Source: Phoronis australis (taxonomy: Eukaryota > Animalia > Phoronida). From it: 64,000 nt of DNA. The position numbers and the translations under genes were made by a program. The DNA lies in NCBI GenBank assembly GCA_002633005.1, contig NMRA01000139.1:678217-742216 (forward strand). The letters run 5' to 3'. Position 1 is the first letter of the stretch. Every line of letters begins with the position of its first letter. This document shows positions 1 through 25,200 of the stretch, piece after piece. The notes beneath the pieces were generated by a model. The model was not told the origin of the DNA, ran no database searches, and saw only the letters and a program-made list of their open reading frames with translations.

Positions 1-13720
<13,720 letters not shown>

Positions 13721-19250: not shown

Positions 19251-22200
19251 CTTGAAGAGAGATCGATTCAACTAATGAACGAGGTAGATGACTTTATAAG
19301 GTGCACACTACGCAAGACTATTACACATCATTCCTTTGCATCCTACCATTGGCGGAGTTCAAATGTAATATGAAAGTTTTTACGTCTTAAGCAGAAGCCC
19401 GGCTTTTCTGTTAAGTGTTTGGGAAATATAGCAATCTGGTCTTCTTGAAAGTTAGTTGAACCTTCTCCAGACAAAGTGTGGTAGCGACCGCTTCACGGTA
19501 CAGTGACTAGGTTTTTACCACAACTTAAGCAGAGCATCCAGGTAAGTTCGCACATTCATACAACATTTGGACAACAAAATTTCGTCCACAAATAGGCTAA
19601 TCATTATCACTGAATGTAAAATTTCGACAGAAAATGACTTAACGGGGCTTAAACATTCTAAAAACCAGACTAAGTGTGGAAAAAAAATTCGAATGGAAAA
19701 CAAGTCGCAGTAAAAACCAACAACGGCGTCAATACTGCACATATAGAGGAGGCTCACTCACCCATCTCGGCATATCGTGGGTGGAAGACGAACGGTGGTG
19801 GTAGCTGAGTACCCAGACGGTAAAGATGACAGATGCGGCACACAGCATCATGACGATACCGAAGTATATGGCTGGAAATAATGTACCCAATGCTACATAC
19901 CTGGGATTAAGTGAAGATTATTTAAAACTTATCTAATTCTTTGCATACTCAATGTGGCTGTACAAGAGATTTTAAAGTCGATATCGTCGTCAAAACAGAC
20001 TCCCTCTAGTCTCACCCAGCACGTGCGTAGTAATGAACAGCTAATTGAACTGCGTTAAGAAATTACTGCTATGCTACAGTATCGACAGGTTCGCGCATGT
20101 GTTCATCAGCAATCTAAGTTGTTTCCGAATAAAAACTAGTAAGAGTGGTTGCTTCACTCGTAAGGCATAGCTATACCCGACGAAGACATCGACGATTTGA
20201 CGTTATGACGCCCATCTGGGAGAACTGCACGACCCACAAGTGACCTGTGTACGCTTTATCCACACAGACAACAACGTGGTACATTAGTAGAGCAACAAGA
20301 CATGTATTTTCCCAAGTGCGCTCAAGGTCTCGACAAAAATACGACATAGGCCAATTTTGGCAAGTGTATCGTCTCTTAGCTTGGAGAAGCATGTTATATT
20401 CGCTATTCACGTTTTTACACGAAATTTTCAAATCTTAGAACACACTTTAACCTTCAAACTTACCAAGAAGAGGAACGGCGTCTGAGGTAGATGGCAGCTG
20501 CTCCGCCACCATTAACAGGAACACAGTCAGCGACAGAAGAATAGTGACGGCTAAACAGTTTAGGATAATGAGACGTGGATTAACTTACACGAATAAAGAT
20601 ACATTTTATATAACACTAACCAATTGGTTCGTGGATATTATGCCCACAATATTCATTTATAAAAGAGTCTCAAATATACCTTTTATTAATACGCGTCTTC
20701 TTGAATAACAAAAGAAAATGCAATCATCTCAAGTTCGTAGAGCAAAAATATCAGAACTTAGTTGAAGATTGAGTCTGATAATGGATATTGGACTGGTGTT
20801 TCCGAAGTCAAATTTCAGGACCTGGGTACAGTGTATTTCCAAGCTTGAATTCCAATTTATATTTGACATCTTCAGTTATACGCTAGTACAAAATTGAGAC
20901 ACGTACTTTTCCAAGTTTGATGTCAAGTAACTCATTGTTTAAGTGGATGAGTGTGCTAATAAACATTGAGTTCCTCGGCATAGAAGCTACATGTTCGAAT
21001 CGGAATACAAGGAATTGAGAGTGAACACTGCCATTCATCTTAAATTTAGGGACTATAATATTCGAAATTAGACAAGAAACTTATATGCCTAAAACACAGC
21101 CATGGGCACGTCTCCTACGTCCGTAGTAAGGCAGAACAAATTATTAACAGTAATGTTAATCTCGAGTTAGCATGCAAAACCTCGGTGCCTGTTCTTGTCA
21201 CTTAGTTCTTTATTAATAATCAATATAAAGGCTGCGAACATTAAAACATTTGTGTATAACTAATTCTATCTAAACAGGTTAGTTCTATCACAGCTTAAAA
21301 ACTGGTTAGCTGCAGGAAGATTTGACATAGACTTGCAGTTGGGAGTGCATGCAGGTCGAGTAAACACCCAGTTGGTGAGAAGGAGGGGGAATTAATGATG
21401 TCTTCCCGAAAAGACCATGCACTTCCTGACAAAGTATTATCGAACTTGACAAAAGATCAACTTAGAGAAGGATGCCATATTGTTCATCGCCTTCAGTTCC
21501 TTCAGTCAAAGTGTTAGACATTATTAGACTTTTGCACCTATTCTAACGTCTCTGTGTATTTGTTAACGCAGGTAAGATTTACTCAACAATAGCCCGTATC
21601 TATTAATTAACCTGAACACGGCATGTCCGCGATTATGAGAGTGCATTCACTAACGTTGGTTTTTCACAACCAGCGAGTTCATGAGGACGGGATTGGCACG
21701 AAGTCGCCAAATTTGCATGACACTCTAGAACCTTATGGAACACGGTCCAAGGTAATTAAACGTAGAGCGCCGATCAAGTAGCGGGTTCAATGGTTAAAAA
21801 TACTACACATTCGCTAACATCAAGGTGGTTGGTGTTAGTAGTTTTATCGGAAGACATTTGCTTCCTTCAGGGGTTGGAGAAATTGCAAGACAACAGAAAA
21901 CGTCGCAATAGAGCAGTTACTGCGACTTTACGTTTTACCTACCCAACAATATCTTCTCGCCCGTGCATACGGGCATCAGAAAGAGTAGCATAACCATGGA
22001 GATTATTAATAAAGTGGGGGCGATTAAATTGATGATGAAATATAACATCCTTCGTCGTAAAATGATTTTGAACTTTATGTCAATGTAAGGTTGGGGACAA
22101 AACAAGTGTACAACTCGACATTTCTTTTGGCGGGAACTCCTAGAAAGAGAAAGGAGCGGTTCTCACACGGGTGCAAGGCAAGTTGTGATGTGGAATGTCA

Positions 22201-25200
22201 AATTTTGTTACCTAGTTGTTCAAAAAGGTCTTGTATATAGAGTCTTATAGCTCCTCATGTTCAATGCAGGTCATTTTGAACAGTTTTGTTTGGAATAAAA
22301 AAAAACAAAAAAAACAGTGCAGGTGGTCTGATGTCATTTGCGGTGCATCAGACGTGCGCAGGCCTCATGGTTGGGCCCATTGCACAAAAAACCTGAGCAA
22401 AGGCACGAGACCCCAATTATGGCTCCTCGTGAAGAAAGTTTTCAAGTCTGCCAGTCTCTTTTAGGAAAACGGACAGACGTTTCCATTTGTTTTGTTTGGA
22501 ATACTTTCGTAAGCTTTTAATGTAAATGGATGTGAAACGCGGACTTTTTTGATAACCAGGTAGCAAAATGCCTTTGCTGACAGCGACTGGTCTTACCAAG
22601 CCATCGTAGTCAGCGACGATGCTATCAACAAAGAAAATGAAACAAAAGCGGCCGCACACGGAAGGTCAAAACAGATAGCTGAAAGAAGTGAAAACACACG
22701 TGTTATTTCTAGGTGTTGCCGGAAATGTGCAAAATAAAATGATTACTAACGACATGGTGCCTGTTGTTAGTGTGATTCGATTTAGTTTCAGGTGCTCAAA
22801 GTGGTTAGCCGATAGATAAACGTGTCATATTGTGCAAGCGGATATATGCTATTATCCTGACACCATCAATTGACCTACCAAACGATATTTTCTCGCCTGC
22901 GTCTGGCGGGATCGTGAACGTGATGATTGTGAGTAGTGAGAGCAAAACTGCTGGTACGATCAGATTGACCAAAAAGTACAGGGTTCTTCGCAATAAAACA
23001 AACTTAAATTTCAAGTCGATGTACGGGGCATCCGGACAGCACTCGTAAAACTCTACATTTCGATACGCCGGCATCTCTAAAAGGAAACAAATTAGTACAA
23101 AGCAATGTAGTGGTTTTCGAACACAACAACGTGCAGGAGATGCAAAGTCATGCATCACAAGGTTAACGCAAGAACAGCTGCGGTATTACAACGCTAGAAA
23201 AACAACACAACCGTATCACCTACCAAATGATATTTTTTCGCCCGCGTCAGGGGGAATAGCAAAAGTTATCAGTGTCAGCAAGGACAACAGTAACGCCGGT
23301 ATGATGAGGTTTACCATGTAATATAATTTTCTCCGAAGTAAAACAAATTTGAATTTCAAGTCGATGTAGGGCGCATCGGGACAACATTCATAGAGTTCGA
23401 CGTAACGTCGCGCTGGCATGTCTAAAAGAAAAGTTAATGGAGATGATTACAATGTACGTGGGCACACACGTGATCACACGAACGTGTGTATGCGTATGTG
23501 AGTGCGTGTGTGCATGACGTCAGAAATTGTGTACACAAGGTGGGCACTGCAAACTGCTGCGTGAAGAATGTCTACCAAAGTGCCACATCGGTTGAGTGCG
23601 CACGCAGTGAAGAAACCTACCAAAAGAGATTTTCTCGCCAGCATCAGGCGGTATAGAAAAAGTAATCAGGGTCAACAATGACAGCAAAACTGCCGGGACA
23701 ATCAAGTTGACCAAATAATAGAGTTTTCGCCGCAGAAGAACGAATTTGTACTTCAGGTCGATGTATGGTGCGTCGGGACAACATTCGTAAAATTCCACGT
23801 TACGATGGACAGGCATTTCTAAAAGTAAATCATATTAAACGTTTTACGTAATTCCGTAGATGGAAATGTTGTAAGTTTATATTGGAATATTTTGTTTATG
23901 GGACCAATCAAGTAGGTCACTGCGGAATAAGATGGAGTCAAATTTCAGAGCCCCATGGACTAAGCGAAATATGTCTCTAAGAGAAACCGTGGTTGTTCAA
24001 CGACAATGACTCACAGAGAGGTCTAACTTATGGAATTCGTCATCTAAAGTAACTAGATGTCCAACATATTTGTTAACACTTCTCCTCAAACAATCTCTAC
24101 AAGACACAAGTTAGCGAAGAACTCACCCAGTAAGTCCCATTCGCCGTTGGGGGTGTAGGACGCGAGGTCGGCGCTATCCGACTTCAGTCGCAAATCAAGC
24201 TTGGTACCATCATACGTCCATGAACCAAACTTCATTATGCATTCTTGTTTATCAAAAGGAAACCACGTGATGTCGATTTTGCACGTGGATCTAAACATGC
24301 CGGGTGGGATGTAAGATGTTGATCCGTCGTTGTAGACAATGACGTTCGTTTGATAAGTGCTGTCAAAACTGTCGTCGGCACTGTAAGATAGAAAGATTTG
24401 CTGATTGAACGATTTCTTCAAGGTGACATGAGCCACCAACGCTAAATTTCTCGCTGGTGCCTCACCGTGGTCATTAAGACATAAGATTGGTGTCGTTTCA
24501 GGGAGCATGCNAGGGCACAGGAATAACCAGAATTTGGCCAAATGCGCGCGCCCAATCTAAAACGTAGGGATGTAGGGGTCTCTATTTTTTGGGTTGGTCG
24601 ACCTTATTACTAAAAACACGGTAAACGGGGTTTGTTCAGTCAAGACCTATGCATTGTACATTCGCCACCCAAGCTCCTTGGGTGCGCGCATATGCTAGTC
24701 AGCAATTCGCACCCCGAACTGCCAAATGGCATCTGGGAGAATTTTAGATGGGGGCCATGACCCCCTTAGACCCCCCTAAATCCGCCACTGGCATGTTGAA
24801 AACAGAGCCACAAACAAAACATGAATTCCCTGCACGCTTAATGTTTCTACCTTCAATGGGTGTATACTTTGCATCTTATCTAATGTTCTCTTAATTGAGG
24901 TCGACAGTTCACACTAATAGAGCAAATAACGTTCTGCAACTATTACCACGTTACAAGTGCGGATCCATGATCATGGCCAGATGGGACCTAACATTACATG
25001 TAAGCTCCATTTCTAAGCCTATTCCTTCATTTCGGCTATACGGAAGAGGACAAGTGGGAGATCAGGATTTTCTGGACCACACTTAGCACCTGTGCTTCCC
25101 TTGATCAACACAGTTCATATTAAGATAGTGTGTAGCTCAGGCTCATACGGGATTACTCAAGAAAATGCGCATGTAACGTACGGCTAGCATTCGCTCGTGT

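Follow-up and report, generated by a model that had tools for sequence, protein, structure and literature searches.

A frameshifted loop C/M1 exon copy in a phoronid alpha7-like nAChR gene, probably an old alternative exon disabled recently

Introduction

Exon duplication within a receptor gene raises the question of what becomes of a copy whose reading frame is broken. The window analysed here, the whole 64,000-nucleotide stretch of a Phoronis australis contig, contains two alpha7-like nAChR genes in tandem on the minus strand, gene A and its paralogue gene B. Gene A has four copies, 7a to 7d, of the exon encoding loop C and M1, and the frame of 7d is interrupted exactly between the codons of its vicinal cysteines. 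An earlier note, made from the letters alone, had seen in 7d either an erroneously sequenced or polymorphic exon encoding an unusual subunit, or a poison exon or the source of a secreted protein, and had allowed for a dead pseudo-exon. Here we ask which of these 7d is, using the DNA and RNA reads of the species, comparisons within the receptor family and simulations of decay.

Results

Exon 7 is present in four copies in gene A and one in gene B

The gene models and related features are listed in Table 1. Exon 6 of gene A matches alpha7-like proteins at 61-72% identity (72% being the highest among the matches listed, with no close relative in the protein collection), and exons 7a-c encode the YxCC motif; gene A is thus an alpha7-like nAChR alpha gene. 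The part of 7d that follows the break likewise finds its best match in human alpha7. Profile searches identified exactly five copies of exon 7 in the window; they detected no further remnants, including in the introns of gene B (next best E value, 0.5), and nothing resembling 7d beside the exon 7 of that gene.

The four copies of gene A have the features of a tandem cluster: they are homologous, share the same phase and have intact splice sites, 7d having the same ends as the others. The acceptor of 7d reads ...TTTCTAG after a strong pyrimidine tract (17 of 20 positions), and its donor, GTAGGT, is identical to those of 7a-c. Sequence analysis of 22139-21943 confirms the fourth, divergent copy that the earlier note had described, with intact AG and GT and a 2-nt frameshift, and the M1, the linker and the leucine at the pore-lining 2' position are as that note gave them. 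Most likely, 7a-d were either-or alternatives, by which loop C, M1 and the 2' position would be exchanged together.

Pairing between a docking site and selector RNA sequences is a feature of some mutually exclusive exon clusters. None of the eight intron pairs examined at this cluster showed such pairing beyond shuffled sequences (3-14 of 15 shuffles were as good). The introns between the intact copies (23077-23223 and 23422-23620) are 147 and 199 nt long, and each of 7a-c has an AG-free zone of more than 78 nt and a branch-like motif 13-17 nt before its acceptor. Elsewhere in the window, the M2 exon of gene B (gene at 11000-1, minus strand; exon at 2181-2098) is divergent, sharing 71% identity with its gene A counterpart and encoding Ala-Tyr at positions 10'-11', and a long (TA)n microsatellite lies in a gene B intron, at about 6080-6210.

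Table 1. Features of genes A and B and of the exon 7 cluster (window coordinates)
Feature	Position	Strand	Length or remark
Gene A, whole model	37843-18792	-	498 aa with 7a, 7b or 7c; exon 1 predicted from sequence alone
Gene A E1	37843-37771	-	our own assignment, predicted from sequence
Gene A E2	28944-28805	-	
Gene A E3	25994-25950	-	
Gene A E4	25655-25546	-	
Gene A E6 (Cys-loop, loop B), upstream of the copies	24380-24127	-	254 nt
Exon 7a	23818-23621	-	198 nt, intact; E6-7a junction, 3 reads
Exon 7b	23421-23224	-	198 nt, intact; none among listed junctions
Exon 7c	23076-22879	-	198 nt, intact; 7c-E8 junction, 4 reads
Multi-copy repeat, 191 bp (22298-22488), between identical 15-bp direct repeats	22283-22503	.	
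Exon 7d, loop C + M1 copy, family-standard length, frameshifted	22139-21943	-	197 nt
T4 run with 2-nt insertion between the two Cys codons of 7d	22102-22099	-	in 4 of 4 DNA runs
Premature TAA on 7d inclusion	22077-22075	-	132 nt before 7d donor
Hairpin following the 7d donor	21936-21897	-	not clearly above chance
Gene A E8 (M2), downstream of the copies	20550-20464	-	87 nt
Gene A E9	19871-19762	-	
Gene A E10	19271-18792	-	
Gene B E2	near 11000-10863	-	
Gene B exon 7 (B7), single copy	2765-2568	-	198 nt

The insertion is present in the DNA of the sequenced animal

The break is spanned by TGTTTTGT (22104-22097, minus strand), and the best-scoring open frame of 7d is obtained by deleting any two T residues of the T4 run; read through the break in this way, 7d is 195 nt long. 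The earlier note had allowed for a homopolymer error and had proposed resequencing of 22099-22102 in several individuals. Contigs from all four DNA runs, assembled separately, cross the site with no differing letter and no gap (depth at the site: X1, 8; X2, 43; X3, 7; X4, 5). All four runs derive from one sample, so that the TT was verified within that sample rather than in several individuals, and the sample is possibly the source of the window itself. These facts, together with the position of the site in a T run, are what could be said for a sequencing or assembly error; the exact agreement of the four assemblies with the window across the site leaves this explanation scarcely credible. We conclude with good confidence that the TT is present in the DNA of the animal and that a consensus error is ruled out.

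The agreement of four separate assemblies over about 1.1 kb suggests that the animal is homozygous at the site, bearing in mind that contigs drop rare or second alleles. A fixed null and one allele among several seem to us about equally probable for the species. As to its origin, the insertion would be explained by slippage that doubled the TT of TGTTGT. Since such doubling fits the T4 run, the placement of the break between the two cysteines needs no special cause.

7d belongs to the standard type of the family

To characterise the type of exon that 7d represents, we compared it with homologues, a family sample that is mostly arthropod. The segment is 65 residues long in 95 of the 96 segments extracted from 120 homologues (24 proteins gave none), and two residues separate CC from PY in all 246 loop C motifs found in 269 proteins. 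The post-break part of 7d aligns gap-free to residues 190-240 of human alpha7. Thus the CCPQPY loop, which the earlier note called shorter, has the family-standard length; it is 7a-c and B7 whose loop C is longer, by one residue, than any of the 246 alpha7-like motifs, equalling the length found in muscle alpha1. This longer loop C is a derived feature common to genes A and B.

Measured against the consensus of 53 distinct family segments, 7d agrees at 35 of 64 positions, compared with 31 for 7a, 29 for 7b, 32 for 7c and 34 for B7. It keeps all 18 columns that are invariant across the 53 segments and 7a-c/B7, and it alone carries the family residue at eight sites. It also departs alone at seven sites where 7a-c/B7 match the family, and the relaxation of constraint could for this reason have lasted longer than we estimate below. 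Among 106 homologous segments, all distinct, the 2' residue is Ser in 60, Thr in 43 and Gly in 3, and never leucine.

The earlier note had called for a dN/dS comparison with orthologous exons. No 7d orthologue was found, the best match having 57% identity; word-based protein searches with 7d and with 7a gave no scoring match, which is weak evidence, and a metagenome scan with 7a yielded 592 pattern matches, none of them confirmed. Among the five copies in the window, synonymous sites approach saturation in every comparison (pS 0.69-0.85 between 7d and the other four), and dN/dS between 7d and the others is 0.21 or less. dN is 0.07-0.15 among 7a-c and B7, and 0.38-0.46 from these to 7d.

In a 60-row tree, 7d falls outside (B7,(7a,7b,7c)) with support of 99/92; a 31-row tree has the same shape, its fork uniting 7a-c with B7 (94/99) lying just under the starred level. 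The very long branch of 7d (2.4-3.5) makes its position unsure. Most likely, as these trees suggest, 7d split off before the duplication that produced genes A and B, and 7a-c arose after it. The standard loop length, the 18 invariant residues and the branching outside 7a-c and the paralogue argue that 7d is an old, long-selected exon.

RNA reads are blank on 7d without discriminating between explanations

We mapped three raw RNA runs chosen by species label (X5-X7, about 18-19% of each sampled) and one contig run to positions 20300-24500, obtaining depths of 3-8 and listing junctions supported by at least 3 reads. Two junctions passed this threshold, both in X7: E6-7a (3 reads) and 7c-E8 (4 reads). 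Thus, more than one copy is joined to a flanking exon, in that run only. The junctions that the earlier note had proposed to look for, 24127->22139 and 21943->20550, were not listed in any of the four low-depth runs at the 3-read threshold. No RNA read of these runs covers the TT site.

For the bin wholly inside 7d, X6 and X7 gave a depth of 0, and X5 one of 0.49. This last signal, about 300 bases, corresponds to one read pair, which lies mostly past the donor, in the intron, and stops short of the TT. Because the pair is mostly intronic and X5 has no depth on E8, we regard it as unspliced at the donor. The intact 7b is in a similar position: none of its junctions was listed, and in X7 the depth of its central bin is zero. 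The blank on 7d does not discriminate between the explanations, since 7b is likewise nearly unseen, depth is low and decay would hide transcripts containing 7d. As a separate observation, 7b (23421-23224, minus strand) encodes Tyr instead of the family's Asn ahead of loop C, and it is hardly seen in RNA; it is possibly a tissue-restricted isoform.

Depth was 3-5 on 7a, 4-5 on 7c, 4-7 on E6 and about 8 on E8, values that fit either-or use only weakly. No copy-to-copy junction was listed at 3 reads or more; E6-7c and 7a-E8 were equally unlisted. A multi-copy repeat at 22296-22491 accounts for most of the mapped reads, and gene B transcripts are represented in X5 and X6.

Compared with the window, the RNA samples show differences at synonymous exonic sites, at least four in number, including 24287, 24314 and 24368 in E6 and 22940 in 7c; the changes at 24314 and 24368 are present in all covering reads (12/12 and 11/11, respectively). 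Reads with changes at 23628-23640 were considered as alleles and rejected, their source being paralogue B.

The loss of constraint is probably recent

Is 7d the remnant of a duplicate that died long ago? Its amino acid identity to the other copies is only 48-56% and its dN is about four times theirs, as a long-dead, neutrally decayed duplicate of 7a-c might show. 7d nevertheless retains all the invariants, its family residues and the family loop length. When 7a, 7b or 7c was allowed to decay neutrally in simulations to a 7d-like distance, no more than 4 of 4000 runs per setting kept all the invariants, and none reached 35 of 64 matches to the family consensus. These results render a long-dead duplicate practically untenable.

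We then let 7d itself decay. The probability that no stop appears and that the 18 residues and AG/GT are kept was 0.61 at 0.01 substitutions per site, 0.036 at 0.07 and 0.010 at 0.10; with one indel allowed, the likelihood peaks at 0.01-0.02 substitutions per site, in a test that uses a simple mutation model and conditions on the columns kept by 7d. The simulations thus put the neutral decay of 7d near 1-2% per site, and under about 7%. Several linker and M1 residues of 7d require two base changes each, so that most of its divergence should predate the break. The 2' leucine is a single C-to-T change away from TCG; it may therefore postdate the loss of function, and is undatable. As a decay of 1-2% is of the same order as the differences between the RNA samples and the window, the lesion may still be polymorphic. 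The dead, neutrally evolving pseudo-exon that the earlier note had named as the refuting case is wrong for most of the history of 7d and probably right for its present state.

The 191-bp repeat listed in Table 1 sits 143 nt upstream of the 7d acceptor and has a T-rich end. Its copies occur in many transcripts, on both strands; Rfam contains no match for it. An Rfam search returned a single sub-threshold chance hit. The perfect 15-bp flanks are likely a target-site duplication, pointing to a recent insertion. Such an insertion would fit a recent loss of constraint, or may itself have weakened the splicing of 7d.

Inclusion of 7d predicts a truncated product and a probably degraded transcript

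With exon 1 placed at 37843-37771, a transcript into which 7d is spliced would encode a 228-aa product ending at the TAA at 22077-22075, which reproduces the size and the stop predicted before. As encoded, this isoform lacks the vicinal cysteines and four membrane helices of an alpha subunit, the stop falling after one Cys. As a rule, a stop elicits nonsense-mediated decay (NMD) when it precedes a downstream junction by more than about 50 nt. The stop of 7d lies 132 nt before the 7d donor junction, and further junctions follow.

This distance, together with the strong pyrimidine tract and a donor shared with 7a-c, would suit a poison exon whose regulated inclusion reduces receptor output by NMD. 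The post-break sequence, however, is conserved at the protein level and in the original frame, which would be needless in a long-standing poison exon; 7d inclusion was not seen in the four low-depth RNA runs, and no positive evidence emerged for this branch of the earlier interpretation. The hairpin following the donor is present as described but modest: its z score is -1.9, 7 of 200 shuffles are equally good and 20 of 324 intronic windows of 44 nt fold as well, placing it at the border of, and within, chance. We consider a poison exon improbable.

A secreted, soluble AChBP-like protein is suggested by the signal-peptide-like start and the length of the truncated product, and a role as sponges for acetylcholine has been put forward for truncated nAChR transcripts (available text of PMC2045683). 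The product ends before the equivalent of alpha7 residue 190, however, and thus lacks the second Cys, the PY tyrosine (the second Tyr of loop C) and the last strand before M1, so that its ligand-binding domain is incomplete; AChBP chains contain this very stretch, according to a comparison with weak E-values. An AChBP-like role is therefore unlikely. The transcript, moreover, is a likely NMD target, and a truncated medfly alpha6 stays mostly cytoplasmic (PMC10672392, in the portion available). All told, we hold it extremely improbable that 7d inclusion produces such a protein.

The frame could also be restored by a nearby acceptor, giving a full-length subunit without the vicinal cysteines. 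AG dinucleotides before 22161 and 22113 would lead to open products of 505 and 489 aa, respectively, and the sole YTRAY branch-like motif is upstream of the 22161 AG. Against this, two in-frame AGs among ten nearby ones are the chance level, both are GAG acceptors, one has no pyrimidine tract, the strand before loop C would be scrambled, and no junction to either AG was listed in the RNA. This makes such a rescue very improbable. Rescue by ribosomal frameshifting was rejected because a slippery site of the canonical X XXY YYZ form is absent ahead of the stop.

Discussion

Our analysis favours the interpretation that 7d is a copy of standard length that was long used as an either-or alternative, was disabled recently by the 2-nt insertion, and now leads to an early stop and probable degradation whenever it is included; we judge this account, taken as a whole, to be probable. 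According to it, 7d would have split from the type represented by 7a-c and gene B before the gene duplication, and likely functioned over a long period within a set of mutually exclusive choices. Slippage would then have doubled the TT of TGTTGT and lately disabled the exon. Gene A would now rely on its derived 198-nt copies, as paralogue B presumably does entirely, and transcripts containing 7d would stop early and probably decay, any truncated product being functionless.

A different outcome is conceivable, in which the species still uses 7d as an alternative exon and the individual sequenced happens to carry a rare null allele on both chromosomes. The intact splice sites and a decay of the order of the differences between the window and the RNA samples are compatible with it. 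Yet the four DNA libraries, all from one sample, contain no second allele, no 7d junction occurs in the other samples that show 7a and 7c junctions (weak evidence), the 2' leucine is without counterpart among the homologous segments, and a repeat was recently inserted just upstream. We regard a live exon as unlikely. Similarly doubtful is the bolder proposal that three derived long-loop copies are replacing the ancestral exon 7 while an intact 7d allele segregates, encoding a splice-selected 2' Leu subunit with a rebuilt M1-M2 linker that narrows or silences mixed channels. An intact allele, if expressed, would provide a naturally occurring alpha7-type subunit whose 2' residue is without precedent.

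Returning to the recently disabled exon, this locus would, if that account is true, be a snapshot of exon turnover, in which a standard-type exon is lost as derived copies take over, and the same turnover would already be complete in the neighbouring paralogue B. Since the broken exon probably makes nothing, its interest is evolutionary rather than mechanistic.

Alternative exon 7 usage has reportedly been noted for aphid or cockroach alpha7. Of 275 retrieved proteins, 16 contain two tandem copies of the loop C/M1 exon, as gene models, including those of the barnacle Amphibalanus (P0043), the stick insect Timema (P0103), the bug Rhodnius (P0119), the woodlouse Armadillidium (P0122) and Macrostomum (P0125); further pairs are in P0121, P0123, P0124 and P0126. 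The exon is the same as here and, as here, one copy is canonical and one divergent. Those pairs, however, consist of two intact copies with loops of standard length, whereas gene A has three copies with a longer loop and a broken one of standard length. At the diagnostic sites, 7d favours the canonical downstream copy of Macrostomum and of P0123 (6 versus 2 and 9 versus 2 sites, respectively), and 7a-c show no preference for the upstream copy of either. Orthology of 7a-c to the upstream copy of Macrostomum may be indicated by one grouping, weakly supported (84/87). We do not claim that 7a-c derive from an upstream exon type of ancient origin that they would have in common with Macrostomum and P0123, a group recovered as one clade in 0% of 200 bootstrap trees. 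Apart from exon 7, the Tubulanus alpha7-like isoforms X1 and X2 (P0020 and P0270) differ by 3 residues, confined to the region of the 45-nt exon 3; we rejected them as an exon 7 choice, and they represent an alpha6-like exon 3 choice outside insects.

Among better-known systems, the molluscan AChBPs (PDB 2br7 and 2byn) are similar in length to the 228-aa truncation, but their loop C and the strand following it are complete, whereas the truncation has neither. In insects, exons 3 and 8 of alpha6 and exon 4 of alpha4 exist as mutually exclusive tandem versions (PMC1919356, PMC2064938 and PMC12309072, from the text available). Insect alpha6, with its 3a/3b and 8a/8b/8c, is like gene A an alpha7-type gene with tandem duplicated exons, in which inclusion of 8c, the least conserved copy, is rare and a copy is missing from some lineages, according to the available parts of PMC1919356 and PMC2064938. 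In that gene the duplication concerns exon 3 and exon 8 (TM2), whereas gene A has four copies of the exon for loop C, M1 and the 2' position, the divergent one frameshifted. The alternative exon 7 of Bombyx alpha8 is likewise a lineage-specific tandem duplication in an nAChR gene, although it encodes TM2-TM3 and not loop C/M1 (PMC2045683, available text). Gene duplication in lophotrochozoans is treated in PMC6896357, in whose accessible text the phrase 'alternative splicing' is absent. The literature searched, in which subscription journals are poorly covered, contained no description of a duplicated loop C/M1 exon. A splice choice of loop C together with M1 recurs in gene models of several phyla.
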